This document shows positions 32,315-62,979 of a DNA stretch of 64,000 bases, piece by piece (positions within the stretch are counted from its first letter, which is position 1; every line of letters begins with the position of its first letter). Under the pieces are notes generated by a model that saw only the letters and a list, made by a program, of their open reading frames with translations, did not search any database and was not told where the DNA came from. Location: positions 3,348 to 67,347 of the IMG/VR virus record IMGVR_UViG_3300048575_000119. The stretch is one strand, 5' to 3'. The position numbers were made by a program, and so were the translations under genes. This stretch comes from a virus.

Positions 32315-32394
32315 GGGGGTACTCTCCTGCTAGGGTTCAGCCGGATGGTCATCCCCCATCGGCACGTCAAGCCTACAACGGTGTAGAGCCTTCG

Positions 32395-32778
32395 TCAAGC
32401 GATCTTTCCACCGTGCCGATTCTCACGGGTCTGGTTGAAGGCATCCTTTGTGGCGACGGCATAGGCTACGTCGACGTTGTGCGCTCGGGCGGTATCCAGG
32501 GCACGAATGATGATATCCGCAATCTCCTCTTCGGCGCAGGTAAGGGCCGGTAGCCCTACCGCGAGCATCTTCTCGGCCTTGTCACAAGGCGCATTGAGCT
32601 TGTCCTCCCGATATGCGTCCCAGAGTTCGGTAACCTCCCCGTGGAGATTTGCGATGTACCGGGACATTCCCTTGGCCTCGAGGTCAGGGTCGTGGAAACC
32701 CTTCTCGGTGGCGACGGCGTGTACGTGGTCGCGAAGCGTATTGAGCGTCGCGAGGTCCTGAGCAATGAACTTCCTCAT
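32395..32778 (-). CDS. mazG: MazG-like nucleotide pyrophosphohydrolase
   Basis: LHGEVTELWDAYR...EEEIADIIIRALD...N..R..RHGGK; start MRKFIAQ 8 nt after a CGGTGTAG copy. Confidence 0.75.
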   Translation of the reverse strand: MRKFIAQDLATLNTLRDHVHAVATEKGFHDPDLEAKGMSRYIANLHGEVTELWDAYREDKLNAPCDKAEKMLAVGLPALTCAEEEIADIIIRALDTARAHNVDVAYAVATKDAFNQTRENRHGGKIA

Positions 32779-32785
32779 GCCACGG

Positions 32786-32809
32786 TCTACACCGGGACCT
32801 CGGTGTAGA
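32786..32809. promoter_or_regulatory. Back-to-back YGGTGTAG elements (divergent promoter pair)
   Basis: TCTACACCG-ggacct-CGGTGTAGA inverted repeat between the divergent mazG and SNF2 helicase genes. Confidence 0.65.
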
Positions 32810-32869
32810 TAGACCTGTCCAGGCCGTTTATGCCGCTGGCCGTGGAGGATCAACCGATCGGGAGAAATA

Positions 32870-34630
32870 ATGGCAAAGATTACGATTCCGGACCCCATAG
32901 AAGCGGTGCGTCCCGTCTACGAGAAGTTGCGTGAAATCCGTGAATCCAAGACGATAAGTCTCAAGCCCAGCCCTTATCTCCGGGAGGAAATCACGGGGTT
33001 GGATGGGGAAAAGGTGCCCCTCAAGCTCAGGTACTACCAGTGCCAGGGGATCTATCACCTGCTGCTCATGCGGAGGATGGTCCTTGGGGATGGTACCGGC
33101 TTGGGGAAAACCCTTCAGGCCATCGGATCCGTCTGCTACCTTTGGCCCAAGGAGCCCGCCAACAGGGTCATCGTCATCGCCCCAAAGAGCGCCTTGCGTC
33201 AATGGGCGGCGGAGATTCAGCGCTTCACGAAGGGCGTGAGGACGTTCATCGCTTCGGGCTCGTTCGCGGAACGTGAACGAGCTTACGACGCCTTTTTCAA
33301 TTCCCCGGCCGAAGAGGGTAAGCCCCGGGCTGTCTTGCTCTTGAACTACCACGTCTTCACGAGGGATTGGCGCCAGGGGCGCGTTCAGCCGCTTCTCCCC
33401 AATGGGAGGATCAACCCCAAGGCCCCTGTGACTCCGGGCTACCTTGACCGGCGCACCGCGCCCGTAGGCAAGGATCTGGTGGTCATCTTCGACGAGGCGA
33501 CCGCCTTCAAGAACATGCGGACGAAGACCTGGGAAGTCTGCCGGGAGCTAAGTGACCGCGCGGGTAGGGTCTACGGGCTCACGGCAACGCTGCTCAAGAA
33601 CAAGCTGGAGGAGGGATTCTCGATCTTCAAGTGCATCCACCCCCCAGTGTTCACGACCAAGTCGGCCTTCCTCGACACCTACTGCACGGTGAAGCTGCAA
33701 AGCGTGGGGACGGCCAAGGTCCCGATCATCCTGGGCTACAAGAACCTGGACCTCTTCCGTTCCAGGATCGACCCCTTCTTCCTCGGGCGCCCCAAGCACG
33801 CGGTCTCCAATGAGCTACCGACCTTGACGACCCGGGAGATCGTCTTCGACCTCACCGATGCCGAATGCGCCAAGTACAACGAGGCCCTTACGGGGATCTT
33901 CGAGTTGGGCGACGGAGAGGTCAAGGACTACGAGGAGCACAAGGCATTCGTCAGCCTCATCTATTGCCAGCAGATCGTCAACTCCCTCTACATGCTACGG
34001 TTCCAGAAGGACGCCGGGTTCACCTCCGGCATGTTTGACGACCGCGTCCATACGATCGGCGACGTGAGCAGCAAGGAACAGGAGCTGATCGACCTCATCA
34101 GCGAAGACCTTGATGGTGAAAAGGTCATCGTCTACACACGATTCGAGTCGCATGTTGGGCGGCTCGTCAAGCTCCTCGCCAACGCCGGGATCAAGAGCGT
34201 ACGCATCACGGGGGCTGAGAAGGACAAGGAGCGGAAGGCATCGCAGGATGCCTTCCAGGACCTCAAGAGTGACACCCGCGTCGTCTTCATCACGGCGGCT
34301 GGATCCGAGGCCATCAACCTCCAGGCGGCCTCTGCCCTCGTGTTCTTCGACTCCCCTTGGTCCTGGGGCGAGTACGTCCAGATCATTGGGCGTATGATTC
34401 GCATCGGATCACCCCACACGGGTGTCCTCGTGTACCACCTTGTAGCAGAACGTGTAGCTGACACGGCGGACGACCGGCATACGATCGACCTTCACATCTT
34501 GCGAACCCTGCGGACGAAGAAGAACCTGATCGATCGGGTCATTGGTGAAGCTGCCGTGGGGGCGCTTGAATTCGAGGCGGAGGGCTCAACCGTCAAGGAC
34601 TTGCTGCGGCGGGTCAAAGGCGCGGTGTAG
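32870..34630 (+). CDS. SNF2-family (SF2) helicase/translocase
   Basis: GDGTGLGKT, VIFDEAT, LTAT, AGSEAINLQAA, QIIGRMIRIG. Confidence 0.85.
   Translation: MAKITIPDPIEAVRPVYEKLREIRESKTISLKPSPYLREEITGLDGEKVPLKLRYYQCQGIYHLLLMRRMVLGDGTGLGKTLQAIGSVCYLWPKEPANRVIVIAPKSALRQWAAEIQRFTKGVRTFIASGSFAERERAYDAFFNSPAEEGKPRAVLLLNYHVFTRDWRQGRVQPLLPNGRINPKAPVTPGYLDRRTAPVGKDLVVIFDEATAFKNMRTKTWEVCRELSDRAGRVYGLTATLLKNKLEEGFSIFKCIHPPVFTTKSAFLDTYCTVKLQSVGTAKVPIILGYKNLDLFRSRIDPFFLGRPKHAVSNELPTLTTREIVFDLTDAECAKYNEALTGIFELGDGEVKDYEEHKAFVSLIYCQQIVNSLYMLRFQKDAGFTSGMFDDRVHTIGDVSSKEQELIDLISEDLDGEKVIVYTRFESHVGRLVKLLANAGIKSVRITGAEKDKERKASQDAFQDLKSDTRVVFITAAGSEAINLQAASALVFFDSPWSWGEYVQIIGRMIRIGSPHTGVLVYHLVAERVADTADDRHTIDLHILRTLRTKKNLIDRVIGEAAVGALEFEAEGSTVKDLLRRVKGAV
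34623..34630 (+). promoter_or_regulatory. YGGTGTAG element
   Basis: CGGTGTAG, 8 nt, ATG 34639; contains the stop of the upstream gene. Confidence 0.6.
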
Positions 34631-34638
34631 GCATGAGC

Positions 34639-35469
34639 ATGGCTGTTTGCCCGCATTGCAAAGATACTGGGTGGGTCGCTGTTGATGACACCACCCGACG
34701 CAAGTGCATCTGCGCCTACGCCAAGGAGCTAAAAGAGCACCTGGGAAAGGAGATCGCTTATGCAAGAACCCTGGAGCAGTCACCGCTCTTCGTGCCTGGT
34801 AAGGATGACCTCACGGAGGACGACCTCTTCATCAAGTGTGACTGGCCCAAGCTATTACCCCATCTCAAGTGGACGCTGACCTTCAAGACGCTGGCCTTCA
34901 AGTTCGTGATCGTCACGGACGAGAAGATTAAGACCGTCTACCTTGGAGCGGAATCCTATGCGGCCCGCGCCAAAGGGCTGCGTGACGACGTGTCCACGTA
35001 CAACTGCCTAGCCGACCTCATTGGCTCGCAGTATGACCTTGTGATCATCAAGCTAGGGAACCTTGGCTACCCCAACAAGGCCATGCCAGGGATCCTTAAG
35101 GAGGCGCTTCTACTTCGAGAGGCCCTTGGAAAGACTACCTGGTTGATCGAGGAATCCGATAAGGTCTTCGGTCCGGGCAACTTCTCGTACAGCCCGGATC
35201 TGCACACCTACATCCAAGAGAATTTTACGGTTGTAGCATTAGAGGGAGAGGCGCGACACGTCCCGCCGCTGAAAGCGGTGACGGCCCCAAGAAAAGCGGA
35301 ACCCATTGAGGACGTCTCGTTGGATGATCCTCCCGAAGAGGCCCCTGTAGCGGCAACAGAGTCCGCATTCAAGGACCTTGACTGGGATATTGTTGCGGGA
35401 GGAAGTCCCAAGCGTTCCAAAGGTGGGTGGAAGCCTAAGAAGCGCCCAAGTGGTGGAGGACCGATCTGA
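34639..35469 (+). CDS. DnaC/IstB-like helicase loader homolog with degenerate ATPase motifs
   Basis: N-terminal CPHCKDTGW...CIC zinc motif; LVIIKLG...LLLREALGKTTWL echoes the loader C-terminus; directly upstream of DnaB. Confidence 0.5.
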   Translation: MAVCPHCKDTGWVAVDDTTRRKCICAYAKELKEHLGKEIAYARTLEQSPLFVPGKDDLTEDDLFIKCDWPKLLPHLKWTLTFKTLAFKFVIVTDEKIKTVYLGAESYAARAKGLRDDVSTYNCLADLIGSQYDLVIIKLGNLGYPNKAMPGILKEALLLREALGKTTWLIEESDKVFGPGNFSYSPDLHTYIQENFTVVALEGEARHVPPLKAVTAPRKAEPIEDVSLDDPPEEAPVAATESAFKDLDWDIVAGGSPKRSKGGWKPKKRPSGGGPI

Positions 35470-36929
35470 TGAAGCGTATTTTAAGGTCTCTGATCGACTA
35501 CAATGGCTCTATTCCGCAGGATGCCTTGGCGTCGAACTACCAGCGTGTCGTTAGCTCCAACATCGAATGGACCCGCCCGGACGAGGATCGCATCTTCCAA
35601 TTTCTCAAGTCATACTTTCAGCAGCGCCTTGAGATGCCTCACGTCCAGACGGTCACGGATTACTTCGAGAAGATGGGCGACCTTGAGGTCACCGAGCGCC
35701 TCAAGGACATCGCGGCGGCTCCGTCGTACACCCGGAGCAACTTCTCACACCTCTTGAAGGAGCAGCTTGAGGCGCAAAACCAGATCAAGGCTATCGCGCA
35801 CCTCAAGGAAGCCCACGAGATGATCGTCAAGGGCGTCACCGTAGGGGGCGTCCGTAAGCAAGGCGTCCGCGATGCCCTCTTGTACTTCACGGAGAAGGCC
35901 AACCAGCTCATCATTCCAGAAGCAAATGCTAAGGTTCGCGGCAACATCCGTGAGGACGGTCAAGCCGTGTGGGACGAGTACCAACGCGCCAAAGGTGACC
36001 AATCCAAGGCGTGGGGGCGCTTCACGGGGCTCAACAACATCGACACGATCTGCCGGGGTATTAAGAAGGGTGAGCTTTGGATTCACGCGGCCTTTGCCGG
36101 GGAGCTGAAGACGACCTTCGCGACCAATTGGTGCTACAACCTCATCACACGCTACCGTTCCAATCTCTTCTACGGCTCCCTGGAGATGAAGTACGAGCAC
36201 ATCCGGCGCTTGATCTACGTCATACACTCGGCCAACGCGCGATTCCGGGCCATGGGCTACGCCCCGCTTGATTACCGAAAGGTCCGCGACGGTGAGCTAA
36301 CCCCCGAGGAGGAGGTCTACTACCAGCTTGTCATCAAAGACTTCGTCGAGAACCCCGAGTATTGTGACTTCGAAACCTGGGCGCCCGATCGCGACATCAC
36401 GGTTGATGATATGAAGATCGAGGCCGAGATCCTTCACCAACGCAAGGAGATCGGCATGGTGGTCATTGACCACGGCGGCTTGGCGGAAGCCCGGAAGGCC
36501 AAGCGCAACAAGGACTACGGCGTCGAGCTGAACAGCGTCATCCGTGACGCTAAGAAGTTCGCGCTACAATTCAATCACGGTGAAGGCATCCCGGTCCTTC
36601 TCCTCTTCCAGATCAACCGTGACGGAAAGGACTACGCGGACAAGAACAACGGGGAGTACAAGATGCGGGCGCTAAGTTACGCCAACGAGGCGGAGCGTTC
36701 GGCCGACGTCATCACGACGACCTACCTCAATGCGGACTACAGGGAGCACAACGTCACCAAGTTCTGCTGCCTCAAGAACCGTGACAATCCCCTCTTCGAC
36801 CCCTTCGAAGCTGCCGTGGACTTCACAACCCGCCGCATCTTCAACGCGGACCCCTATGCGGGAGCTGACGGGCGCGGAATCTCGGTTGACGACAACCGAC
36901 AAATCATGGACGTTATGATGACGGTGTAA
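35469..36929 (+). CDS. dnaB: DnaB-like replicative helicase
   Basis: Walker A variant AFAGELKT, YGSLEM, VVIDH, LLFQINR, AERSADVI, KNRD. Confidence 0.8.
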   Translation: MKRILRSLIDYNGSIPQDALASNYQRVVSSNIEWTRPDEDRIFQFLKSYFQQRLEMPHVQTVTDYFEKMGDLEVTERLKDIAAAPSYTRSNFSHLLKEQLEAQNQIKAIAHLKEAHEMIVKGVTVGGVRKQGVRDALLYFTEKANQLIIPEANAKVRGNIREDGQAVWDEYQRAKGDQSKAWGRFTGLNNIDTICRGIKKGELWIHAAFAGELKTTFATNWCYNLITRYRSNLFYGSLEMKYEHIRRLIYVIHSANARFRAMGYAPLDYRKVRDGELTPEEEVYYQLVIKDFVENPEYCDFETWAPDRDITVDDMKIEAEILHQRKEIGMVVIDHGGLAEARKAKRNKDYGVELNSVIRDAKKFALQFNHGEGIPVLLLFQINRDGKDYADKNNGEYKMRALSYANEAERSADVITTTYLNADYREHNVTKFCCLKNRDNPLFDPFEAAVDFTTRRIFNADPYAGADGRGISVDDNRQIMDVMMTV

Positions 36930-36931: not shown

Positions 36932-37294
36932 ATGTTCATTGGTAGCTTAGTGAATCAGACGGTACGATTGCGGATGGCTTATGATTGCCAGCACGATTGG
37001 CAGTACTACAACGCAACCGAGGATCAGTGTTCGAAGTGTCGCGTTATCGCGACGGAGGAGGGGAAGCGGACCCTGGCAGCTATGGCGGCACGCTTCCATG
37101 GGCTTCCGGTCGGTGTAGAAGCTGACCATGCCCCGGGACTTTCGGCGAGAAGCCGAACAGGAAAGCAGTCAGCGGAAGCTTCAACAAGCCTGGATTCAGG
37201 AACGTGTCGCTGCGATTCGGGCGACGGTGAGCGCCTACGATGTTCTCCGCAGGTTCGGAGTGAAGCTCCAACATGCGGGGGAGACCCGCATTGA
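36932..37294 (+). CDS. Possible small Cys-containing protein; 3' end uncertain because it overlaps the next gene
   Basis: CQHDW...CSKC motif in the first half; 167-nt out-of-frame overlap with 37128. Confidence 0.3.
   Translation: MFIGSLVNQTVRLRMAYDCQHDWQYYNATEDQCSKCRVIATEEGKRTLAAMAARFHGLPVGVEADHAPGLSARSRTGKQSAEASTSLDSGTCRCDSGDGERLRCSPQVRSEAPTCGGDPH
37111..37118 (+). promoter_or_regulatory. YGGTGTAG element
   Basis: CGGTGTAG, 9 nt, ATG 37128. Confidence 0.55.
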
Positions 37295-37763
37295 GCAGTT
37301 CTCCTGCCCCTTTCACGGTAAAGACTCAAAGCCCTCGGCCCGGCTATACCCCGCTGGGCCTACGGGGCCGTCTCACGCTTGGTGCTTCGTTTGCCAAGAG
37401 CGCTGGGACGCCATAGCCCTCTGGCGCAAGTTCAACGACCCTACGGCCCCCTTCACCCGGTCTCTTGCCGAGATCGAGCGGACTTACGGGATCCACGCGC
37501 CCGAAATGCCGAACCTCGGCGACATTCGTGCATCAATCCGCGAGCAAGAGTTCGAGGAGCTTCAAAGCCTCTTGGATGTGGCTGAACGACGGCTCATGGG
37601 CGCCCGTGACGACTTCGACATGAAAGCCTACCTCACCATCGGATCCGTCTTGGACAAGCTCCATACCCGGATCGAGAAGGGGACCATCACCGCCGAGGTT
37701 ACCCGCGCCACCATCCGGAAGATTCTCGATAAGATCGGAGAGCGATGCCGCGCCGCGTCTTAG
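37128..37763 (+). CDS. Primase zinc-binding (CHC2) domain protein without a TOPRIM domain
   Basis: CPFHGKDSKPSARLY...HAWCFVC; helical C-terminus. Confidence 0.75.
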   Translation: MPRDFRREAEQESSQRKLQQAWIQERVAAIRATVSAYDVLRRFGVKLQHAGETRIEQFSCPFHGKDSKPSARLYPAGPTGPSHAWCFVCQERWDAIALWRKFNDPTAPFTRSLAEIERTYGIHAPEMPNLGDIRASIREQEFEELQSLLDVAERRLMGARDDFDMKAYLTIGSVLDKLHTRIEKGTITAEVTRATIRKILDKIGERCRAAS

Positions 37764-40994: not shown

Positions 40995-41474
40995 ATGAGT
41001 GACTTCATCACGGAATGCAACGAGTACAAGGTCCCTGAACAGGACTTCGTTGGGGCGTGGTGTTCACGATGTCGCCGTGAGGATTGTGTTCGGAGCAGCC
41101 AAGGGACGAGCCGCTTTGACGTGCGTACCAAGACGTGGCAAGAGCGGCTCTTCACCAAGGTCCCGAAGCTGCCCGAAACCGATCCTCGCTTCCCTGGGAT
41201 TGCTGCCAAGATGTTTCAGGAGACGGACAAGACCGTGCAAGCGCATGGATGGGATGCCCCTCCGCCGCCAATGCCTGAACCATCTCAAGTAGAATCGCCT
41301 CCGCCCGCGCCGGTTTCTGTGGGGCAATACACGAGGGCGCCCAATCAATCGGGGCGTGTCTTAGGCACGGCCCCGGCCGGTTGGACCCCGAAGGAAGCTG
41401 TTATTCGACCTGGGACCCGCATCAAACTTGGTGGTGGCGGTGTAGGAGAGGGCAGCGACGGAAGTAAGGCATAG
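40995..41474 (+). CDS. Hypothetical protein
   Basis: GAGG RBS; C...WCSRC...C N-terminus and Pro-rich C-terminus. Confidence 0.55.
   Translation: MSDFITECNEYKVPEQDFVGAWCSRCRREDCVRSSQGTSRFDVRTKTWQERLFTKVPKLPETDPRFPGIAAKMFQETDKTVQAHGWDAPPPPMPEPSQVESPPPAPVSVGQYTRAPNQSGRVLGTAPAGWTPKEAVIRPGTRIKLGGGGVGEGSDGSKA
41438..41445 (+). promoter_or_regulatory. YGGTGTAG element
   Basis: CGGTGTAG 41 nt before ATG 41487, which has an AGGAG SD. Confidence 0.45.
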
Positions 41475-41486: not shown

Positions 41487-41669
41487 ATGGGTATGCGATT
41501 CAAGGCAGTCATTAGGAAAGACGGCAAGGTTGTGACCGAGGTACTGGAGCGCGGTGAGCACCTCTGCACCGAGGTCTACAAGGTCACCAACGCGATCGGC
41601 AAGCAGCTATCGGACGAACACACTGGCCCAGAAGGGGACCGTGTTGAGGAGATCAACGGAGGGAGCTGA
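41487..41669 (+). CDS. DUF2997-like small protein
   Basis: FKAVIRKDGKVVTEV...G..C pattern; next to DUF1257-like and Ycf46-like genes. Confidence 0.6.
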   Translation: MGMRFKAVIRKDGKVVTEVLERGEHLCTEVYKVTNAIGKQLSDEHTGPEGDRVEEINGGS

Positions 41670-42065: not shown

Positions 42066-42095
42066 CGAAGCCCGCGCAAAAGATCGCGGGCTTCG
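42066..42095 (+). terminator. Strong stem-loop, probable terminator or processing hairpin
   Basis: CGAAGCCCGCG-caaaagat-CGCGGGCTTCG, 11 bp; weak U-tract; followed by TGGTGTAG. Confidence 0.55.
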
Positions 42096-42102: not shown

Positions 42103-42110
42103 TGGTGTAG
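42103..42110 (+). promoter_or_regulatory. YGGTGTAG element
   Basis: TGGTGTAG right after the hairpin, 22 nt before ATG 42133 (AGGAG SD). Confidence 0.6.
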
Positions 42111-42132: not shown

Positions 42133-43689
42133 ATGAGCCCCGACCTCGAATTCCTACTACGATCCTTGACCCGTATGATCTACGTCGTGACGGACGAGGA
42201 AGATCAATTCATTCGAACCTTCCAGAAGAAACTCTCGAAGTTTGAGAAGCAGACCTGGGTTTACAATGCGGCGCTCGGCCTTGTTCCCATCGGGCAGCTC
42301 ACCAAGGATTGGCAGAACCGCGCGCACCAAGAGATCCCGGCGACGATGAGCATCCATGAGGCGCTCATCCAGATCTACAAGAATGACCCGCAAGACGGGC
42401 AGCATTTCTATATCATCACGGACCCCGAGCGGTGGCTTCGTGACGAACACGTGCAGCGCCGGATCTTGAACGTCGCGCATCAGCTTCACAACAACATCAA
42501 GGTCGTCAAGCTGATGATCTTCGTCGGCCCCCGCAAATACATCCCCGAGAAGCTCTCGCGGTACATCGAGGTCGTGAATGAGCGCGGGCTTACGCCGGAG
42601 GAGATCACCGAGCTTGCGACCGAGACGTGTACGCGCCTCAAGATCGACGTTCCCGAGGACGCGCCTCGGATCTTCCAAGGGCTCACGCACTATGAATGCA
42701 TCTCGGCCATTGCGCAGAGCTACATCAAGACGCGCAAGACGACCCGCAAGGTCGATCCGGCATACATCGCGCAATTCAAGCGCAACCAGATCAAGAAGAC
42801 GGACCTGCTCCAATTCGTCGACACGACAACGACCTTCGATGACGTTGGCGGCAACGATCGCTTCAAGGAATGGGCCTTGGAGACCAAGGCTGCCTGGACC
42901 GAGCAAGGTCGCGCCTACGGCTTGAAGCCCCCGAAGGGCGTACTAGCGGTCGGCGTATGGGGCTGCGGTAAGTCCCTCTCGGTCAAGGCTATGGGGTCGG
43001 CTTGGAACCTCCCGGTGGTCCAGCTTGAAATGGGGAAGCTACGCTCGAGCGGCGTCGGCGAATCCGAAGCCAACGTCTACCGGGCAACGCGGCTCATTGA
43101 AGCCATCGCGCCTTGCATCGTATGGGTTGACGAAGCTGAGAAGAGCTTGGCGGGTAACGCATCCTCGGGGCAGAGCGACGCGGGTACGACGTCACGCACG
43201 ATCGGCATCTTGTCGACTTGGCTGCAAGAGACCACGGCGCCGATCTGCATGGCGATGACGGCCAACAGCCTCACTACGATGCCGGTCGAATTCGTCAACC
43301 GCATGGACGAGCGCTTCTTCTTCGACATCCCGAGCGAAGAGGAACGCATGGCGATCCTCAAGATTCACCTCCGGAAGGCGGGGCAGAGTCCGGACAACTA
43401 CGACCTTGCGACCTTGGCCGAGAAGTCCAACAACATGGTCGGCCGTGAGATCGAGCAAGCCATCCAGGCGGCCATGATCAAGAGCTTCAACGCCAAGAAG
43501 CCGAGCCTTGACGAGGGCATCCTCATCGACGTGTTCGCCCACAAGCCTCGGATTCTCCGGACCATGGCGGACGAGATGAAGGCGATCACCGAATGGGTGG
43601 GATACGATCCCGACGCCCAGGAGGGTATCCGCGCCCGTCTCGCCTCCGGGTCACGCAGCGCCTCTTTCCGGGTGGTCAACGGGTCATGA
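42133..43689 (+). CDS. Ycf46-like AAA+ ATPase
   Basis: N-terminal LLRSLTRMIYVVTDEE; Walker A GVWGCGKSL; Walker B VWVDEAEK; RMDERFFFDIP. Confidence 0.8.
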   Translation: MSPDLEFLLRSLTRMIYVVTDEEDQFIRTFQKKLSKFEKQTWVYNAALGLVPIGQLTKDWQNRAHQEIPATMSIHEALIQIYKNDPQDGQHFYIITDPERWLRDEHVQRRILNVAHQLHNNIKVVKLMIFVGPRKYIPEKLSRYIEVVNERGLTPEEITELATETCTRLKIDVPEDAPRIFQGLTHYECISAIAQSYIKTRKTTRKVDPAYIAQFKRNQIKKTDLLQFVDTTTTFDDVGGNDRFKEWALETKAAWTEQGRAYGLKPPKGVLAVGVWGCGKSLSVKAMGSAWNLPVVQLEMGKLRSSGVGESEANVYRATRLIEAIAPCIVWVDEAEKSLAGNASSGQSDAGTTSRTIGILSTWLQETTAPICMAMTANSLTTMPVEFVNRMDERFFFDIPSEEERMAILKIHLRKAGQSPDNYDLATLAEKSNNMVGREIEQAIQAAMIKSFNAKKPSLDEGILIDVFAHKPRILRTMADEMKAITEWVGYDPDAQEGIRARLASGSRSASFRVVNGS

Positions 43690-45685: not shown

Positions 45686-45863
45686 ATCCAGGATGCGCCG
45701 GGTGGGGCCGATCATGGTTGGACCCATCTCCGTAGAATTCCACCTTCGACTCTCCGTAGCCGAAGAGGTCCTCGAGGAGCTTGTTGACGACAAGGTCCTC
45801 CGCCGCGCAACGCCCGCCGAAAAACGCCAGTACGATATCCAGGGTGGTTACTTCCTGGTGTAG
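45639..45863 (+). CDS. Small winged-helix-like protein; start uncertain
   Basis: PISVEFHLRLSVAEEVLEELVDDKVLRR pattern; ends in GTG TAG. Confidence 0.45.
   Translation: MNPSNFKQQVKTSLLESRMRRVGPIMVGPISVEFHLRLSVAEEVLEELVDDKVLRRATPAEKRQYDIQGGYFLV
45856..45863 (+). promoter_or_regulatory. YGGTGTAG element
   Basis: TGGTGTAG, 9 nt, GTG 45873. Confidence 0.55.
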
Positions 45864-45872: not shown

Positions 45873-46172
45873 GTGGGAATCCGGGCAGAAAAACAGCGCT
45901 ACGTCAGCATCATCCAGCTACACGCGAAGTCCAAGGGTTTCAAGCCCGAAGAGGTCGCGCGTCTTGTAGCGATGGTTCGGTCTTGCAAGACCGATGAGGC
46001 GCTTGCGCAAGTCAAGACGGCCATCTGGGACGTCCTTGGGGATAAACCCCCAGACACGGCCACGCGCCTTCTGGTTGAAGACCTATTCGAGCGTGCGGAA
46101 GAGCCCGAGGATCCCCCAGCCTTGCGGGAGGCCCTTGCCCGCTCCCAAGTCAACCTCAAGGACTATCGATGA
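45873..46172 (+). CDS. Hypothetical protein
   Basis: 99 aa helical ORF, ATGA-coupled to the next gene. Confidence 0.55.
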   Translation: MGIRAEKQRYVSIIQLHAKSKGFKPEEVARLVAMVRSCKTDEALAQVKTAIWDVLGDKPPDTATRLLVEDLFERAEEPEDPPALREALARSQVNLKDYR

Positions 46173-49742: not shown

Positions 49743-49750
49743 CGGTGTAG
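49743..49750 (+). promoter_or_regulatory. YGGTGTAG element
   Basis: CGGTGTAG, 8 nt, ATG 49759. Confidence 0.6.
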
Positions 49751-49758
49751 TCTGGGGC

Positions 49759-50191: not shown

Positions 50192-50420
50192 ACCGATCCA
50201 GATTCACTACTTGACGACCGGCACGTTCTCTTGGGAGCTTCACCTGGACAATGAAGAGGAGACGACCATCGCCAGTGTCTGCGGGGGGCCGCTGCCTCGA
50301 CGAGGGGACCATGTCAGCCATGAGGACTTTGACAAGCCTCTCAAGGTGACGCGCGTCGTTTGGGATATTCGACGCGGATACGGACTACAAGCCGACGTCT
50401 ACGTGGATCCGTTGGTGTAG
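50184..50420 (+). CDS. Hypothetical protein
   Basis: GGAGG RBS; LPRRGDHV...KVTRVVW; ends GTG TAG. Confidence 0.55.
   Translation: MAEPIQIHYLTTGTFSWELHLDNEEETTIASVCGGPLPRRGDHVSHEDFDKPLKVTRVVWDIRRGYGLQADVYVDPLV
50413..50420 (+). promoter_or_regulatory. YGGTGTAG element
   Basis: TGGTGTAG 19 nt before ATG 50440 (AGGAG SD). Confidence 0.55.
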
Positions 50421-50439: not shown

Positions 50440-51198
50440 ATGAATTCAGATGAGACCCGTGATCAGAAGATCGCCGAAGAAGCTGATGCCGCCGTCAAGG
50501 ACGTTCTAGCTAACCTCTCCCCCGAAGAGCGTGAGGCGCTTGCTGCGTCCATGGCGAACCCTGTGCGTGGCCCCAGGGACCCTCTGGCCGAGATGGAGGC
50601 TAAGTTCGCGGCGGAGCCGGGGTATGCGGACCTCTCCTACGAAGAGAAGAAGGAATTTCTCAAGGAGAAGATCCGAACCATGCCTAAGCCGGATCGGAAG
50701 GCTCTGGTCAAGGCTATGGCGAAGCGTATGCGCCCGCGTGGCCCTGCGCCCGTCAAGCAGCCTCCGATGCCCAAGCCCAACGACCCCTGCCCATGCGGGG
50801 CCGAGAATGACGACGGTAAGCCTATCAAGTTCAAGAAGTGCTGTGGATCCAACCGAGGAGACCTGGTGTACTTCGTGGCCCGAGGCGAAGAGGCCCTGAT
50901 GAACGACTTGGGGCAAGTCCTGATCTTCGAATCGCCGACCCACGCTGTGGCAGGAGCAAGGCACTACGGGTGGACAGACGGGGACGTTATCCCGCTCCCT
51001 CCGGCACGCTTTGAGAAGTTCAAGGGGCAGATCCCCTACGTCCACGTGGTGACCAAGGAGTTTGACGTCGCCAAGACAGAGGACGAGGAGAAGGCTGAGC
51101 CCCCGGCTATCGCCATCACGTCCGTTGCTCAAATCATGTCCGATGCAATCGCCAAGGAGACCTCGGATGAAGAGCAAGGCTCTACAGCAAGCCCTTGA
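50440..51198 (+). CDS. SEC-C motif (zinc-binding) protein
   Basis: PKPNDPCPCG...KFKKCCG. Confidence 0.7.
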   Translation: MNSDETRDQKIAEEADAAVKDVLANLSPEEREALAASMANPVRGPRDPLAEMEAKFAAEPGYADLSYEEKKEFLKEKIRTMPKPDRKALVKAMAKRMRPRGPAPVKQPPMPKPNDPCPCGAENDDGKPIKFKKCCGSNRGDLVYFVARGEEALMNDLGQVLIFESPTHAVAGARHYGWTDGDVIPLPPARFEKFKGQIPYVHVVTKEFDVAKTEDEEKAEPPAIAITSVAQIMSDAIAKETSDEEQGSTASP

Positions 51199-54172: not shown

Positions 54173-54180
54173 CGGTGTAG
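54173..54180 (+). promoter_or_regulatory. YGGTGTAG element
   Basis: CGGTGTAG, 8 nt, ATG 54189. Confidence 0.6.
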
Positions 54181-55514: not shown

Positions 55515-56713
55515 ATGCTCGTCACGTCCAGCTTTCAGGGTTCGGTCTACCTTCGGAGCGCACACGCCCTCGATGAGGGCGGCTTGAATGAAATCTACAA
55601 CGCGAACTACGAGTTCGCGGATGGTGAGGTGAAGGGCTCTTCTCTTGTCCAAAACGTGGAAATGTACACGGACTACAAGAAGGGCATCGGCCGGGGTATC
55701 GTTTACGCCCTCAACCCTGACTACAACTACATCTACAAGATCGAGCGACCCCTACGGATCTTCGAGAAGAAGCGCGAAGACTTTCTCTACGCGATCAAGC
55801 GAGGTATGGTCGACCTCGACCTCATTGCGAAGCAGCACCCCAAGCTGACGCAAGAGGCGGCCATTGAAGAGGTCCTCAAAGAGGTCCTTGGTGAGGGCGT
55901 CTACTACCTCCAGTACTTCAAGAAGGCCCCCTTCATGAAGTACTATGACGGCGTTCAGGTCCACAAGACGGCTGACATGAAGTATTGGGGCAACGTGGGG
56001 ATCTGGCTTTCGATCATCCAGACCGGCGCGGACCTGATCGACGGTAACGTCAAGCGGTTCGTCAAGGAGGCGCCGGGGACGGTCCCAGATATCCCTTCGG
56101 ACATCGTAGAGGAGCTGGTTGACTACACGGCTAAGGCGGGCGGCCGTATTGGGACGCGTGCCAAGAAGTGGCTCCAAGAGAACATCAAGCCGCCTTACGG
56201 GTCCATCAAGGTCTACCGGGGCGTGAAGCTCGACAGCTACGATGTCAAAGGGCTCACCGAAGATGCTCAGACTTACTTGGGGCTCTCCAAGCTCACGGAC
56301 GTCCATAAGGGCGCCGTGGCGACGCTTAGCCGGGGCGAGCGTCGTCTTGGTCACAGACGCCCCAGATATCCCGAGAGTTCGCCAATTTGGGAGCCATGCA
56401 CCTCCTCTTGCAAGCTGAGCTGAAGCCCAAGCAGATCATCGTTGACCTCACCTTGCTCCCTATGGGCATCCGTACCAAGTTCAGGCACTTCAGCCAGAAC
56501 GAGGTCATTGCCGCGCCGGGAAAGATCCCGGCGAAGATCATCTCCATAGGGGTTTCGGAGTACCTCCTGAAGCATCTGGAGACACCCACGCAGTATTCGG
56601 ACCCTGCTCTCCAGAACTACGAGTGGGTTCCCCGCTACGGGTTCATCGAAAAGAAGGCCGATCTCGCGCGGAAGATCATGGCCCGTTATCTTGGGACTAC
56701 AGATATGGTGTAG
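55515..56713 (+). pseudogene. ADP-ribosyltransferase-like gene split by a -1 frameshift at about 56339 (real lesion or sequence error)
   Basis: Frame 0 has KVYRG. After GGC GAG, frame 2 reads ASSWSQTPQISREFA...QNEVI, giving the R-S-E motif set across two ORFs (55515-56423 and 56387-56713). Confidence 0.65.
56706..56713 (+). promoter_or_regulatory. YGGTGTAG element
   Basis: TGGTGTAG, 8 nt, ATG 56722. Confidence 0.6.
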
Positions 56714-56721: not shown

Positions 56722-57093
56722 ATGGCAGCAACGTTTGAGCATCTTTCTTGCCCTCTTCCGCTACCTCCCCTCGATCATCTATCCGTTGCAGAGCTAACCG
56801 CGTTGCGTCAGGAGCTTCATAGGATAGGGCGCACCGCCCGCAAGGAGGCGTCCAAGACCATCCAGAAGATCCCGGGCTTGAATAAGCTCTGGCTCAAGAC
56901 GATCGCGGTCAAGACCGACGATGAGAATCGCCTGGCGATCCTTGAGGAGTTCAATCGCGAGCTGGTCAAGCATCCCGAGGCGTTCGTGAAGCACGCCTAT
57001 GCCAACTCTCTCGTCATCATCGATACGGCCATCCACGATGAGGCCATGAAACGCGCAGCTACGACCCCTGTGATGGTGACACGAAGACGTTGA
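56722..57093 (+). CDS. Hypothetical protein
   Basis: 123 aa helical; start 8 nt after the motif. Confidence 0.55.
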   Translation: MAATFEHLSCPLPLPPLDHLSVAELTALRQELHRIGRTARKEASKTIQKIPGLNKLWLKTIAVKTDDENRLAILEEFNRELVKHPEAFVKHAYANSLVIIDTAIHDEAMKRAATTPVMVTRRR

Positions 57094-57107
57094 TCCCTCG
57101 CTGACAT

Positions 57108-57115
57108 CGGTGTAG
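57108..57115 (+). promoter_or_regulatory. YGGTGTAG element
   Basis: Intergenic CGGTGTAG, 8 nt, ATG 57124. Confidence 0.6.
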
Positions 57116-57123: not shown

Positions 57124-57945
57124 ATGCTAAGCGGCAAAACAGAGGGGCTACCCTACTCGCTCTCACGTTGGACCGACGTTCCGGCGTCCAAGTGGGACTG
57201 GTTCAAGGCTCAATTGGCGCAAGGGCGCATGACGGCGTTCGACCCACGAACGGCCATCCCGGGGGAATGGAGCCTCCGGCAAGAGGACACCCAGGGGCTG
57301 ATTCTTTGGACGAAGAACCCCACCAACCTCTTGAAGGACGCCGCGCTCCTCAAGGGCTACCCCCTGGTCGTGCATGTGACCTTGACGGGATGGGGCGAGG
57401 TTGAGAAAAACGCCCCCGACATTCACGAAGGCATCCGGTTGCTCAAGGACACGGTCCGGACCTTTGGGGTGCATCAAGTCGTGTGGCGGTTCACGCCTAT
57501 CCCGCAGCTCCCGACCCTTGAGATCCTCGATCGGTTCACTGAGATCGCTGAAGAGGTCGCCAAGGTGGGCGTTCGTGAGGTCTACACGGTCTTCTTGCAG
57601 CCGAATGACCGGATGCCTGAGACCCGGACGGTCCACCGGCGCCACCTCACGATCCAAGCCATGGCGCGATCGGTGGAGTACCTACACATCCTGGTGCTTC
57701 ATTGCAAGGATGACCAGACAACCCTCTCCAAGCCGATCGACCAGTACGAGTACAACCTCGATGTAGGCGTTTGTGAGGACGGGCGGCGGTTCGGGGCGCC
57801 TCCCACCATGGATTGCGGATGCTGCCTTGCCGTTGACCCCTTCACGATCAACGAGACGTGCGCCTTGGGGTGCAAGTACTGCTACGCGGCGGATAAGAGC
57901 CTCTCGGCGAAGAAGCGCAACACGACGCTCAGGGTGCTGCCTTGA
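57124..57945 (+). CDS. DUF1848-family protein (radical SAM-related, C-terminal Cys cluster)
   Basis: SLSRWTDVPA..WDWF, LWTKNP, VVWRFTPI, CGC...ETCALGCKYCYA. Confidence 0.75.
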   Translation: MLSGKTEGLPYSLSRWTDVPASKWDWFKAQLAQGRMTAFDPRTAIPGEWSLRQEDTQGLILWTKNPTNLLKDAALLKGYPLVVHVTLTGWGEVEKNAPDIHEGIRLLKDTVRTFGVHQVVWRFTPIPQLPTLEILDRFTEIAEEVAKVGVREVYTVFLQPNDRMPETRTVHRRHLTIQAMARSVEYLHILVLHCKDDQTTLSKPIDQYEYNLDVGVCEDGRRFGAPPTMDCGCCLAVDPFTINETCALGCKYCYAADKSLSAKKRNTTLRVLP

Positions 57946-58331
57946 TTCACACGCATCCGTTTGCGGAGGATTGGCTTGCGCTCCAGGGCATACACATCCC
58001 CCCGGAGCCTGCCAAGGTCTCGCACTTCCTGAATTTTGACGTGACGCTCTACGACTACCACGACCCCCGCCCTCTTACGGAGGTGGTTGAGGATCAGATC
58101 ATGGTTTTGCTGGAGCGCTTCAAACCTGGAATGGACACACGCCTTCAGGTGGTGACCACGTATGCGGACGGTTCGAGTTACACCCGCACCTTAACACATC
58201 TGTTCTTCAACATGCCCAGGTACGACCTTGTGCATCGCGCGGTCACGTTATGCGACGACCGCGAGCGAGAGATTGTGAGCATCTTGTTAGCACTACACAA
58301 CATGGAAGAGATCCCCCATGCCAAATCTTGA
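57942..58331 (+). CDS. Hypothetical protein
   Basis: TTG start overlapping the upstream stop. Confidence 0.45.
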   Translation: MIHTHPFAEDWLALQGIHIPPEPAKVSHFLNFDVTLYDYHDPRPLTEVVEDQIMVLLERFKPGMDTRLQVVTTYADGSSYTRTLTHLFFNMPRYDLVHRAVTLCDDREREIVSILLALHNMEEIPHAKS

Positions 58332-59467: not shown

Positions 59468-59552
59468 CCCGCCTAAAATCGAAACCACGATGCAAAGTTC
59501 TCTTGACATCGTGGGCATCACATCAAAAGATGGTGGCGATCATTAGACCTGG

Positions 59553-59560
59553 TGGTGTAG
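59553..59560 (+). promoter_or_regulatory. YGGTGTAG element
   Basis: Intergenic TGGTGTAG 39 nt before ATG 59600 (AAGGAG SD). Confidence 0.55.
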
Positions 59561-59599
59561 ACATCAGGACAGAACCACATCGGATTCAAGGAGATCAAC

Positions 59600-60268
59600 A
59601 TGAACGCACGTGAGCTGAAGAACACCCGCAAGCGGACCCTGGGCCTTGTCAACGCGATCGAAGCGCAGATCAAGAAACTCGAAGGCACCCTCAAGAGTGC
59701 CAAGTCGCACCTCAAGGAGGTCGACACCCTCATCGCCGACAACACCAAGCTGAGCGTGGCCAAGAAGAACGTCAAGGCTGAGAAGCCTGCGAAGGCTGCC
59801 AAGCCCGCGAAGGAAGTCAAAGCGGCCAAGGCGGAGAAGCCTGCGAAGACGGGTGATCGCCCGACGCTGGTTGAAGCGATCAAGATCGTCATGGGCAACA
59901 AGGTGATGAACGCCGAGGCGGTTCTCGCTGCGCTCACAGAGAAGGGGTGGGCACCCGGTGCCCAAGACAAGAAGACCTACACGAGCTACCTGCTCTCCTC
60001 GAACAAGGATGTCTTCGAACGCGTGCCTGACAAGGGTCGGGGATTCTACCGCGTCGCCGATGTCAAGGTGAAGGCTGCCGCTCCCAAGGCCGAGGCAAAG
60101 GCTGAAGTCAAGGCAGAGGCGCCCAAGGCCGAGGCAAAGGCTGAAGCCAAGGTCGAGGCCCCCAAGGCGGAGGCGCCCAAGGCCAAGAAGGACAAGGCTG
60201 CTGACGACAAGATCCTCGCCGACCTGGGCGTTACCGCGCCCGACGCCGCCAACCCCTTCGGCGGCTGA
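59600..60268 (+). CDS. Histone H1-like Lys/Ala-rich protein with a central HARE-HTH-like winged helix
   Basis: KPAK/KAEAK repeats flanking TLVEAIKIVMG...MNAEAVLAAL...YLLS...FERV..GRGFYRV. Confidence 0.65.
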   Translation: MNARELKNTRKRTLGLVNAIEAQIKKLEGTLKSAKSHLKEVDTLIADNTKLSVAKKNVKAEKPAKAAKPAKEVKAAKAEKPAKTGDRPTLVEAIKIVMGNKVMNAEAVLAALTEKGWAPGAQDKKTYTSYLLSSNKDVFERVPDKGRGFYRVADVKVKAAAPKAEAKAEVKAEAPKAEAKAEAKVEAPKAEAPKAKKDKAADDKILADLGVTAPDAANPFGG

Positions 60269-60288
60269 TCCTACACTTCAAGCCCTTC

Positions 60289-60330
60289 CACAAGGGGGAC
60301 GAGCTTTACGGCCGTCCCCCTTGTGCTTTC
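60289..60330 (+). terminator. Rho-independent terminator
   Basis: CACAAGGGGGACG-11 nt-CGTCCCCCTTGTG (13 bp) then CTTTCT, after the H1-like gene. Confidence 0.65.
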
Positions 60331-60338
60331 TGGTGTAG
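60331..60338 (+). promoter_or_regulatory. YGGTGTAG element
   Basis: TGGTGTAG immediately after the terminator, 36 nt before ATG 60375 (GAGGA SD). Confidence 0.6.
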
Positions 60339-60374
60339 CTGTAGGGTGTACGTGAGACACTGACGAGGATTTGT

Positions 60375-60740
60375 ATGTCAGACCGTAATGTAACGATCGA
60401 CGCCGCCCGCAGGCTGATCAAGATCCGCATGCAGCAGGCGATTTGCCGTGAGAAACTCAAGGAGCTGGGAGGGACGGACCATATCTGGGAACCTATGCTG
60501 ATGCTTGCAGACGGCTTCTACGACGAGGCCCTTAAGGATTGGAATGCCCATCTCAAGAGCGTCCCGATGCACATGCATGTCCGGCTTGCGCTCATCGTTG
60601 AGGCTATCTCCCAAGCAACCATTGAGGCGGGCTTCCCTTACAAGGACCACTGCGATGAAGCCTGGATCAAGCGGGTCATCGGTAACTTCCTGGCCACCTT
60701 TGACCCGATGGAGATGCTTGACGGTGTAGGGGACGCTTGA
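60375..60740 (+). CDS. Hypothetical protein
   Basis: GAGGA RBS; 121 aa. Confidence 0.55.
   Translation: MSDRNVTIDAARRLIKIRMQQAICREKLKELGGTDHIWEPMLMLADGFYDEALKDWNAHLKSVPMHMHVRLALIVEAISQATIEAGFPYKDHCDEAWIKRVIGNFLATFDPMEMLDGVGDA
60722..60729 (+). promoter_or_regulatory. YGGTGTAG element
   Basis: CGGTGTAG 7 nt before TTG 60737 and 10 nt before ATG 60740. Confidence 0.45.
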
Positions 60741-61234
60741 TGAAGACCGGGGACCTCATAGATCTGGATGGCAAACGCTACCAAGTCGGTCAATTTCGAC
60801 GTGACGTTAGGACCTTCATGGTTTACGACGTCACTGGAGTTGGGCGTGAGGTCCCAGACGACATTCCGCACAAGGTCGTGGCGCAACCGCCCTCCACGTG
60901 GCCCTTCATCACGTCGAAGGAGCATCCCAAACACGGGGCGGTAGCGTCCGTTCAGATCCCGTCCCGGCAGCGGGAGCTTACACCTCTTGAGGATTGGGCG
61001 CCAAGTGAGCCCACCCGGGCAGGCGGCAGTATCTTCCTGAACCCTGCCTTGGGGCTACGCCTTGGGGATACCGTCAACGTCACGCTCCGATCGGGAAAGA
61101 TCGTCCGTGTGACCATACAGAGGTCCTTTGCGTCGGTTCCACAGCGGATCGAAAGAGCTGCGGCCAAACCCAAGGAGCCAAAGACTGCTTTTGACCATCT
61201 CCTAGAGGGAGATGACGATGAAGATACCCCTTGA
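60737..61234 (+). CDS. Hypothetical protein
   Basis: 165 aa, coupled to the upstream stop. Confidence 0.55.
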   Translation: MMKTGDLIDLDGKRYQVGQFRRDVRTFMVYDVTGVGREVPDDIPHKVVAQPPSTWPFITSKEHPKHGAVASVQIPSRQRELTPLEDWAPSEPTRAGGSIFLNPALGLRLGDTVNVTLRSGKIVRVTIQRSFASVPQRIERAAAKPKEPKTAFDHLLEGDDDEDTP

Positions 61235-61820
61235 AGTCGATCGCGCCGTGGGTGCAATGCGGGTTGCCCGTTCCAGCATCCTCGAGGAGTTCACCCGGAA
61301 GAACGTGATGGGCACCACCTGTAGTGAGGGGTGTCACCATTGCTGCTATTGGCCGGTAGCGATATCGGTCCTTGAAGGGGCGGAGATCTACCTGCACCTC
61401 AAGGCGCAACACCGTTGGACGACGTCATTGGCGGCTCGACTTGACCAAGCGGCGACGGCGGTAACGGGGCTCAGCTATCCTGTGTGGCTGCATTCCGAGA
61501 CACCGTGCGTCTTCCTCGAGAAGGGGCGCTGCTCGATCTATGCGGCAAGGCCAACGGCGTGTCGCAGCGCAATCTCTAAGGGGGACCCCTTGGATTGTAA
61601 CGTCCATCGGTTAATCCAAGCGCAAAGCCTGGTCCCACGGGTTTCCGTCATGACGCGGTTTCACCAAGAGGAGCAGGCTATCCTCAAGCAATTCAAGGGT
61701 GACTGGCATACCATGCCGATCCCTACGGCGGTCCTTGTAGCGCATCGCATCTGCTCTGGGGAGTTCAACCTGAGCCAGGCCCGCGCGGCGGTGTTCGTTG
61801 AACACTTGGGGAGGATGTGA
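61212..61820 (+). CDS. YkgJ-family cysteine-cluster (CxxxCxxCC) protein
   Basis: TCSEGCHHCCY...CVFLEKGRCSIYAARPTACR. Confidence 0.8.
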   Translation: MTMKIPLEVDRAVGAMRVARSSILEEFTRKNVMGTTCSEGCHHCCYWPVAISVLEGAEIYLHLKAQHRWTTSLAARLDQAATAVTGLSYPVWLHSETPCVFLEKGRCSIYAARPTACRSAISKGDPLDCNVHRLIQAQSLVPRVSVMTRFHQEEQAILKQFKGDWHTMPIPTAVLVAHRICSGEFNLSQARAAVFVEHLGRM

Positions 61821-62107
61821 TGATTTGCTCGGTATGCCGAAAAGAGAAGCCTTGCCCTCACAAGGTCACGCTGACCCAGGAGCAGCTTGAATCAATGCGC
61901 AAGCTCACGGGGCATGACCTCCCGGAGAGCTTCTACTACTGCGAGCCGTGCTGGCGCGTAGTGATGGATCGTGAACGCGGGGCGGCGCTTCTTCGGGGGC
62001 TCTACCAGACCGCGTTGACCAACCTCGGACATCCAAATGCCGTCAAAGCAGGGGAACGCCTACAAGCATTCCTCCTTGATAAGACCAGGAAAGGTAAGCC
62101 GTCGTGA
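61817..62107 (+). CDS. Small zinc-finger-like protein
   Basis: CSVC...YYCEPC. Confidence 0.55.
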   Translation: MMICSVCRKEKPCPHKVTLTQEQLESMRKLTGHDLPESFYYCEPCWRVVMDRERGAALLRGLYQTALTNLGHPNAVKAGERLQAFLLDKTRKGKPS

Positions 62108-62772
62108 GTGACAACAAGTTCGAAGCCTTGATGCAACACCTTAACGGGATCCGTGAAAAGTACGGCGACGACGCCTACAAATCGGCCGCTACGGACATCG
62201 CGGGGCAATTCTTGGCGCAAGGAGGGGAGACCGCTGCCTTCGCCCGAGAGGCTTTCAAGGGCGTCGTTGATTTCGACGCCGTAGAGAAGCAGCGGGCTGA
62301 AATGCCTGCGGACAATCCCATCCTGGCGGCCATTCAACAGCAAGTCCCGGGGATCAAGTCACAAGCGCAATTCAACGTCTTCATGGCAGCCTTTGACGCC
62401 CTGCGGGCCACCATGAACGCCATCTTCACGGGCAACGACGCTGACGAGGCCAAGGGTAAGAAGGCTCTTGAGTCAGCCTATGAGGCCGCACACAAGGCGA
62501 CCGAGATCACAGGTAAGCTCACAGACGTCCCGGAGGCCGCTACCAGCAAGGCCGCCGAAGAATTCAAGAACCCTCCACGTCAATTCACGGAGCTATCCGA
62601 ACAACGTGCCCTCCTCACCGAGCTTGGCGAGATCAAGAGCACCGACACCCTCAACACGTGGTACGCTGCCAACCGCTCCCGTATTGACCGGGTTGTAAGT
62701 CAATCGCTACGCAACGCTCTCTTCGACTCGATTCGACAGAAGAGGGACGCGCTTTCCGCCTCCTCGGTGTAG
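62104..62772 (+). CDS. Hypothetical helical protein
   Basis: 222 aa, GTGA-coupled; ends GTG TAG. Confidence 0.6.
   Translation: MSDNKFEALMQHLNGIREKYGDDAYKSAATDIAGQFLAQGGETAAFAREAFKGVVDFDAVEKQRAEMPADNPILAAIQQQVPGIKSQAQFNVFMAAFDALRATMNAIFTGNDADEAKGKKALESAYEAAHKATEITGKLTDVPEAATSKAAEEFKNPPRQFTELSEQRALLTELGEIKSTDTLNTWYAANRSRIDRVVSQSLRNALFDSIRQKRDALSASSV
62765..62772 (+). promoter_or_regulatory. YGGTGTAG element
   Basis: CGGTGTAG, 9 nt, ATG 62782. Confidence 0.6.
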
Positions 62773-62781
62773 AACCGGGGC

Positions 62782-62979
62782 ATGCCACACCCTGATCGAG
62801 ACCACTGGTGGTATTGTCAAGCCAATGAGACCTTGCTACAAGGCCCTGGGTTTGATTTCAAGACCCTTGTCGCCGTCGAGGCGGATGACCTTGTCGTGCG
62901 GACCGGGATCGACCCGGATAACCCAATCCGGATTCCTCTCCCCTTGCTTGAAAATCTCCTGCGAAAGGCTGAAGGATGA
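62782..62979 (+). CDS. Hypothetical protein
   Basis: 65 aa, ATGA-coupled to the DHH gene. Confidence 0.5.
   Translation: MPHPDRDHWWYCQANETLLQGPGFDFKTLVAVEADDLVVRTGIDPDNPIRIPLPLLENLLRKAEG

Follow-up and report, generated by a model that had tools for sequence, protein, structure and literature searches.

CGGTGTA, a conserved -10-like candidate promoter element of probable leaderless genes in a clade of uncultivated megaphages

In this work we have analysed the octamer YGGTGTAG in a window of 64,000 nucleotides (nt), bases 3348–67347 of the IMG/VR viral contig IMGVR_UViG_3300048575_000119 (83,744 bp, 59% GC), and have found that this feature is real, strongly non-random and conserved. The two strands of the window hold 20 copies, while 100 dinucleotide-preserving shuffles of the window give an expectation of 2.38 ± 1.35 and never more than 5. 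The motif is very likely a virus-specific signal for transcription initiation. On balance, we favour the view that YGGTGTAG is a -35-independent promoter of the early or middle class, which is read by the host core RNA polymerase (RNAP) with a phage sigma factor and gives rise to leaderless mRNAs; the transcription start site (TSS), the reader and the temporal class are what we infer in this view. That is, YGGTGTAG, or CGGTGTA as the core shared in the clade, would form the -10 region of a class of early/middle promoters in a megaphage of ~450 kb, and most copies would function without a -35 box. Host core RNAP, most likely with a phage-encoded sigma, would read the motif and initiate 8–10 nt downstream of it. 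If an ATG is located at the initiation point, the mRNA would be leaderless or have a leader of 1–3 nt at most, without a Shine-Dalgarno sequence (SD), and if the gene start is further off, a normal leader containing an SD would be transcribed.

The plus strand of the first 32 kb of the window codes for very large tail and virion proteins, whose genes have ordinary GGAG-type SDs. The following part, 32–64 kb, encodes an SNF2 helicase, DnaB, a primase zinc ribbon, a family A DNA polymerase (PolA), an AAA+ ATPase and ThyA, as well as ClpX, a DUF1848 protein, a DHH protein and many unknown genes. An earlier reading of the sequence alone had listed 16 plus-strand copies and one minus-strand copy of the motif, and we have reproduced all of their coordinates, which fall in 32.4–62.8 kb (Table 1). 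It had also seen no plus-strand copy in the structural half, and indeed positions 1–32000 contain zero. The other three copies in the window (12724, 16806 and 18828) are on the minus strand, antisense within large structural genes, which is the chance level. Within the motif-bearing part, six copies lie exactly 8 nt from an ATG with a spacer ending in GC, and three lie 9 nt from a start (two ATG and one GTG), as had been described. The copies located 19–61 nt upstream of a gene all precede an SD of the GGAG/GAGG type, and two copies directly follow strong hairpins, again in agreement with the sequence-only reading. Some copies stand back to back in divergent orientation at strand switches.

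The same rules hold when the scan is extended to the whole contig. Seven further sense copies have been found outside the window; they are oriented with the local genes and keep the N8-10-ATG geometry, the distance from each copy to the ATG being 8–10 nt, or 17 nt where an SD is present. For the shorter word GGTGTAG, 18 of the 39 copies on both strands of the contig have a start codon 7–10 nt downstream (open reading frames, ORFs, of at least 60 codons), while two control words give 0 such near-start sites in the same scan. ATG is the start codon at 14 of these 18 sites, and C occupies position -1 at 17. Of the 18, two in the structural region run antisense and probably arose by chance, which leaves 16 credible sites. 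At these 16 sites ATG starts predominate and room for an SD is absent, while the structural and the far-spaced genes have GGAG-type SDs. Actually, all seven genes with a far copy (17–61 nt upstream) carry a GGAG/GAGG SD 5–10 nt before the start, and the rule that near starts lack an SD and far starts have one has no exception in the whole contig. Since the far copies precede genes with SDs of their own, a role of the motif in ribosome binding cannot explain them, and a promoter explains both the near and the far class.

We have further examined the related megaphages. PolA has relatives of 47–53% identity on 15 viral contigs, several of which are complete genomes of 380–512 kb with terminal repeats, and the related uncultivated group spans about 370–510 kb. 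All 10 related megaphage contigs tested show enrichment of the core CGGTGTA ahead of ATGs. GGTGTAG-N7-10-ATG, compared with the reversed word, occurs 50 vs 6, 36 vs 0, 18 vs 8, 23 vs 1 and 11 vs 2 times in five relatives, and GGTGTA-N8-11-ATG is three- to nine-fold enriched in four further relatives and counts 9 vs 0 in a fifth. In two complete relatives, G005 and G006, an unbiased ranking of the 7-mers found 8–9 nt before ATGs places CGGTGTA and GGTGTA(G/C/A/T) at the top with 27–56-fold enrichment. These genomes contain 109 and 85 start-associated sites, respectively, whose distances to the start are sharply peaked; 47 of the 109 sites in G005 share the same spacing. Overall, the motif is conserved in at least 11 contigs of 47–65% GC. 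As for the consensus proposed from sequence alone, its enrichment and its positional rules have stood, while its last base is not kept at the level of the clade: the core of the clade is CGGTGTA, and the base after GGTGTA varies. In G005, for example, 25 of 64 sites have C or T there.

The conservation can also be followed gene by gene. Orthologues of the SNF2, ClpX, AAA+, DUF1848 and 127-aa genes, among others, keep an upstream GGTGTA at 35–60% protein identity, and some of them switch between the leaderless and the leadered form. The SNF2 helicase orthologues in both G005 and G006 have GGTGTA upstream. In G006, GGTGTA is found ten nt before the ATG of the 127-aa gene orthologue and 10 nt before that of ClpX, and GGTGTAG 9 nt before the ATG of the orthologue of the GTG gene at 45873. 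Orthologues of the gene at 41487 have GGTGTA 52–59 nt upstream, and the G005 orthologue of the gene after copy 60722 has GGTGTAG 8 nt before its ATG. The copy at 32379 may be non-functional; in the sense direction, the sole ORF start within 90 nt of it is a TTG, and this ORF runs antisense to the mazG-like gene. At copy 49743, related strains (runs X1 and X2) carry an extra G behind 49753, so the spacer there is 9 nt.

In the complete G005 and G006, sense motif sites are absent from the 120–160-kb blocks that hold the structural genes, as they are in the window. This exclusion speaks for a temporal class other than late, and it sets the motif apart from late promoter systems, which drive structural genes.

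The sequence-only reading had seen no shared -35 box. This holds for the copies as a whole, since none is common to them all and no conserved upstream box appears in 24 (this contig), 109 (G005) or 85 (G006) aligned sites; it does not hold for copy 57108, which has TTGATC 13 bp upstream. In G005 and G006 no column upstream of -1 exceeds 0.25 bits, which fits the lack of a -35 requirement. In the contig, 3 of the 24 motif sites have TTGATC exactly 13 bp ahead of GGTGTA, and 11 further copies of TTGATC stand at this distance upstream of a second word, GGCATA. The composite TTGATC-N13-GG(TG/CA)TA thus counts 14 sites against 0–0.01 expected. The three hybrid sites with GGTGTA are the one in the window, one at contig position 71895, and one at contig position 82169 (minus strand) before a sigma-like gene. 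TTGATC resembles the -35 hexamer TTGACA, and its distance to the TA of the motif is 17 bp, the canonical spacing. The fixed TTGATC-N13 arrangement together with this spacing implies that GGTGTA and GGCATA occupy the -10 region of a promoter of the sigma70-family type. With the motif at -10, transcripts should begin a few nt downstream, and an ATG 8–10 nt off should give a leaderless or nearly leaderless mRNA. The 8–10 nt from motif to ATG, with C at -1 and A at +1, are compatible with a TSS 5–9 nt after the hexamer. The tolerance of 8 vs 9 nt, the richness of the spacer in G and the C at -1 fit a DNA-level initiation context and would not form part of such an mRNA.

The motif does not belong to the promoter classes that it might be taken for. 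An extended -10 (TGnTATAAT) has its TG one base upstream of a TAnnnT hexamer; here TG abuts TA, and T is not preferred at the equivalent of -7 in the 24, 109 and 85 sites, which places the motif outside this class. Extracytoplasmic function (ECF) promoters require both a GGAAC-like -35 and a short, CGTC-like -10; the motif has no such -35, and where a -35 exists it is TTGATC. In addition, canonical sigma70 promoters are not enriched in 41–61 kb (4 found vs 4.8 expected), nor are intrinsic terminators in the same region.

The second class, TTGATC-N13-GGCATA-N8-ATG, has 11 copies, mostly before small unknown genes in the minus-strand block at contig 74–82 kb. It was looked for in G005 and G006 and was not found there. 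It may represent the earliest class, or its reader may be a sigma whose region 4 is functional.

The sequence-only reading had proposed to look for sigma and RNAP genes. A Sigma70_r2 gene is indeed present on the same contig, outside the window, and no phage RNAP has been detected in the complete relatives. T7-like and multisubunit RNAP families gave no match on the contig or in five relatives, a weak negative as the PF00940 control matched nowhere; since no RNAP domain was detected, the host core polymerase is probably used. The sigma-like protein, P0002, has 157 aa and is encoded at contig 81662–82135 on the minus strand (L016:14662–15135). Sigma70_r2 matches its residues 35–97 and region 4 has no match, and when aligned with an ECF sigma the protein ends ahead of the region 4.2 helix-turn-helix (HTH). 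The AF2 model of P0002 has a pLDDT of 55, a confidence too low for a fold search. The promoter of the P0002 gene itself is the hybrid TTGATC-N13-GGTGTAC-N8-ATG. A word-indexed search for relatives of P0002 returned P0002 alone, which is also recorded on a contig of 341 kb, and an exhaustive HMMER search of 1.8 billion representatives gave one clear homologue of 45% identity, on whose contig GGTGTAG is found 8 and 10 nt before gene starts. The small genes next to it include those for an Endonuclease VII (L016:15270–15767, plus), a DUF6891 protein (13056–13520, minus) and a SWIM zinc-finger protein (11126–11455, minus).

A longer sigma-like family has been found in three complete relatives and three partial ones, with pairwise E-values of 1e-21 to 1e-55. 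Its members end in a C-terminal HTH, and their regions 2.2 and 2.3 are separated by an insertion of 100–200 aa, which in some members contains CxxC pairs. P0002 aligns weakly with region 2 of this family, sharing the motifs QH..L.L and HN..xN(W/Y)CR..RR. The candidates for the reader are P0002, a long-form orthologue encoded in the missing 80% of the genome, or a redirected host sigma, among which we favour a phage sigma. Two other candidates have been rejected. A Sigma70_r4_2 match at window 1433–2146 comes from the HTH that a GIY-YIG/NUMOD3 homing endonuclease carries; genes of this kind are found at 1433–2146 and 3530–4378 (both plus) within the virion-gene module. A 2311-aa ORF containing a DFDWD string was considered as a virion RNAP, but it has no PDB, Pfam or PHROG match and is of beta-helix/propeller, tailspike-like character. 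The protein, encoded at 16636–23571 (plus), is rich in G, T, S and N, with a beta-helix and repeats, and reads as tailspike-like.

Table 1. Motif copies, associated hairpins, second-class sites and sigma-like genes (window coordinates unless a contig or locus is given).
Feature	Coordinates	Strand	Context
CGGTGTAG	32379..32386	+	antisense between two minus-strand genes; part of near-palindrome 32373-32386
CGGTGTAG	32787..32794	-	8 nt to ATG of 127-aa gene (mazG in the sequence-only reading); back to back with plus-strand copy 6 bp off
CGGTGTAG	32801..32808	+	61-nt leader, GGGAGA SD; SNF2-family helicase 32870-34630
CGGTGTAG	34623..34630	+	motif TAG is the helicase stop; ATG 8 nt on (34639), another ATG at 34633
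CGGTGTAG	37111..37118	+	9 nt to ATG of CHC2 zinc-ribbon (primase-like) gene 37128-37763
CGGTGTAG	41438..41445	+	41-nt leader, AGGAG SD; small gene from 41487
Hairpin, 11-bp, GC-rich, terminator-like	42066..42095	+	ends 7 nt ahead of copy 42103; -22.6 kcal/mol, z -5.41
TGGTGTAG	42103..42110	+	22-nt leader, AGGAG SD; AAA+ ATPase gene 42133-43689
TGGTGTAG	45856..45863	+	9 nt to GTG 45873 (99 aa)
CGGTGTAG	49743..49750	+	8 nt to ATG 49759 (72 aa)
TGGTGTAG	50413..50420	+	19-nt leader, AAGGAG SD; gene 50440-51198
CGGTGTAG	54173..54180	+	8 nt to ATG 54189 of ClpX
TGGTGTAG	56706..56713	+	8 nt to ATG 56722 (123 aa); motif TAG closes upstream ORF
Hybrid promoter TTGATC-13 bp-CGGTGTAG (motif 57108-57115)	57090..57115	+	8 nt to ATG of DUF1848 gene 57124-57945
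TGGTGTAG	59553..59560	+	39-nt leader, AAGGAG SD; gene 59600-60268
Strong hairpin, terminator-like	60289..60325	+	ends 5 nt ahead of copy 60331; -29.8 kcal/mol, z -7.66
TGGTGTAG	60331..60338	+	36-nt leader with GAGG; gene 60375-60740
CGGTGTAG	60722..60729	+	7 nt to TTG 60737, 10 nt to ATG 60740
CGGTGTAG	62765..62772	+	motif TAG closes 222-aa upstream gene; 9 nt to ATG 62782
Motif copies outside window	contig 80062, 77860, 75103, 74704, 68731	-	in minus-strand gene block
Motif copies outside window	contig 71914, 80555	+	
TTGATC-N13-GGCATA	30848..30872	+	8 nt before ATG (121-aa ORF)
TTGATC-N13-GGCATA	31618..31642	+	8 nt before ATG 31651 (118 aa)
TTGATC-N13-GGCATA	32829..32853	-	in tandem, ~35 nt upstream of minus-strand CGGTGTAG copy
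TTGATC composite sites outside window	L016 1085-15169		10 sites
Long sigma-like family members	L028:17838-18911, L066:5655-7196, L026:526-1731, L022:793-1713	-	

Overall, the computational checks that the sequence-only reading had proposed for a promoter came out in its favour. On the other hand, several observations weigh against a phage-sigma promoter giving leaderless mRNAs. The motif is no textbook extended -10: a canonical hexamer ends in T, which the motif lacks, and no base separates its TG from TA. P0002 is a near-orphan whereas the motif is conserved, and the long sigma family has a C-terminal HTH though no -35 is conserved. The contig samples 18% of this phage genome, with the remainder lying outside it. 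The runs labelled RNA-Seq (X2–X4) have been rejected as TSS evidence, as they behave as DNA with even coverage and Nextera ends. Finally, at 16 of 24 sites the upstream frame ends with the TAG of the motif, a possible hint of translational coupling. This last feature is a convenience of compaction and is outside the conserved signal, since the base after GGTGTA varies in the relatives.

Small phage proteins such as P23-45 gp39 and T4 AsiA disable -35 recognition, and one may ask whether the motif is read by a redirected housekeeping holoenzyme or by an alternative sigma of the host, with the promoter and the leaderless outcome unchanged. We consider this rather unlikely, though it deserves to be taken seriously. 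Phages without their own RNAP often reuse the host sigma on -35-independent promoters (PMC3950348), and P0002 is poorly conserved while the motif is well conserved. The likeness of TTGATC to TTGACA at the canonical 17 bp points in the same direction, and TTGACG/TTGACA boxes, not GGTGTA, stand ahead of the sigma genes in G005 and G006. However, the base equivalent to -7 is not T, and, in contrast to housekeeping promoters, sites that do have a -35 still keep GGYR before TA without variation. In addition, the core is identical in phages of 47–65% GC, which probably have different hosts, and the sigma-like family is kept in all complete relatives.

If the motif acted in RNA, as a non-SD translation-initiation element, a termination-reinitiation site or a processing site in a longer transcript, its role would be comparable to that of the start-associated sequences of cluster K mycobacteriophages. 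The fixed 8–10 nt to the start codon, the lack of an SD, the TAG that closes so many upstream frames and the ability of GGUG to pair with the CACC of the 16S 3' tail agree with such a role. We nevertheless regard it as improbable, because the seven copies 17–61 nt from a start belong to genes with their own SD and other copies open divergent units without upstream translation. Start-associated sequences contain an SD-like core complementary to the 16S 3' end and always adjoin the start; here the 4 nt of GGUG are the sole pairing with the anti-SD, and the spacing is too long. As the base after GGTGTA varies in G005, the element does not include a stop codon. The constant TTGATC-N13 spacing belongs to the DNA level, and a leaderless mRNA would contain neither the conserved G-rich spacer nor the C at -1. 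An even more improbable account, to which we give very little credit, is that the motif is no promoter but an operator-like site to which a phage regulator binds, such as an orientation-biased 'stoperator' of the kind found in cluster A mycobacteriophages. The motif is a short, asymmetric repeat that lies at gene boundaries in the direction of transcription, as might be expected of such a site, and inverted pairs do occur, with a perfect one at 32787–32808 and frequent ones in G005. But the majority of copies stand alone, the spacing to the start codon is tightly fixed, the motif regions have no other promoter candidates, copies follow terminator-like hairpins, and 7–8 bp are short for an operator.

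Among known systems, the small podovirus phiEco32 of E. coli has an ECF-like small phage sigma, gp36, whose promoters carry TAATGTATA at -10 and share the TGTA core with the present motif, although their flanks are different and they have not been reported as a leaderless regulon. Minimal sigma factors are known in jumbo phages without their own RNAP (PMC7824862). These and the T4 late promoters (TATAAATA at -10, gp55) resemble the present case in having a single -10 element of ~8 bp without a -35; their phage sigma, which works with the host core polymerase, consists essentially of a region-2-like part, as P0002 may do. The T4 late sequence is, however, wholly different from the GC-rich CGGTGTAG, gp55 has no detectable similarity to P0002, and the present motif is found at genes for replication and host interaction and is excluded from the late ones. 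T4 late transcription also depends on gp33 and the sliding clamp. Thermus phage P23-45 has extended -10 promoters that need no -35 (PMC3950348), and phiYS40 has leaderless middle and late mRNAs (PMC3594737). Both systems are alike with ours in -35-independent promoters that start many transcripts at AUG, and in mixing leaderless with SD-led genes. Their promoters are TG-n-TATAAT-like and use host sigma A, while our motif lacks the final T and has TG directly next to TA, and the phages carry a sigma-like family of their own. A -10 motif (TANNNT) adjoining ORFs has been described in Deinococcus-Thermus and Actinobacteria (PMC12340547); it is alike in its fixed short distance to the start, in its leaderless mRNAs and in the division of genes into two classes, with the -10 motif vs a GGAG ribosome-binding site. 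TANNNT is a host housekeeping promoter, whereas here the word is specific to a virus clade, has four extra conserved bases (GGTG) and lacks T at -7. A literature search on the motif string returned primers alone, and within a limited set of literature we have found no description of YGGTGTAG or of a promoter consensus for such megaphages.

As for the source of the contig, its CheckV completeness of 18% implies that these 83.7 kb are a fragment of a megaphage of the size given above. A megablast against GenBank phages gave no match to this phage, and a tblastn of PolA against known phage records gave nothing close, with merely 32% identity for the best match. The search for a host points to none, as ClpX is 45–50% identical to proteins from many phyla alike and the contig has no tRNAs. 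The phage reaches a depth of about 30x in biofilm or wastewater samples. Strains from a biofilm run and from wastewater runs are near-identical to the window, with small indels at 49753, 58275–58316 and 60302–60312; the cluster at 58275–58316 is frameshift-compensating between the near-identical strains.

To our knowledge, nothing is experimentally known about the organisation of transcription in uncultivated megaphages. We read the motif as a probable phage-specific, -10-only promoter coupled to leaderless expression; to this the present analysis adds the second class with TTGATC/GGCATA and the clade-wide sigma-like family. It provides a concrete promoter consensus that can be tested in vitro, together with a candidate family of cognate sigmas. 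With the consensus, the sigma family and the second class, temporal classes and transcription units would become predictable from sequence alone, and the annotation of gene starts could be improved by taking an ATG 8–10 nt after the motif as the start. Large-scale leaderless expression has so far been documented for Thermus phages and for Actinobacteria/Deinococcus hosts, and our observations suggest that it is a strategy of SD-using giant phages too. Tentatively, we would extend this to a clade of 370–510-kb megaphages that may possess a private code, in which a sigma with a region-2-splitting insertion reads CGGTGTA, RNA starts at the start codon, and 10–20% of the genes (~100 per genome) are leaderless. 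If this is true, a virus-specific promoter would be coupled to a virus-favoured mode of translation initiation, which would allow these phages temporal or competitive control over the SD-led mRNAs of the host.

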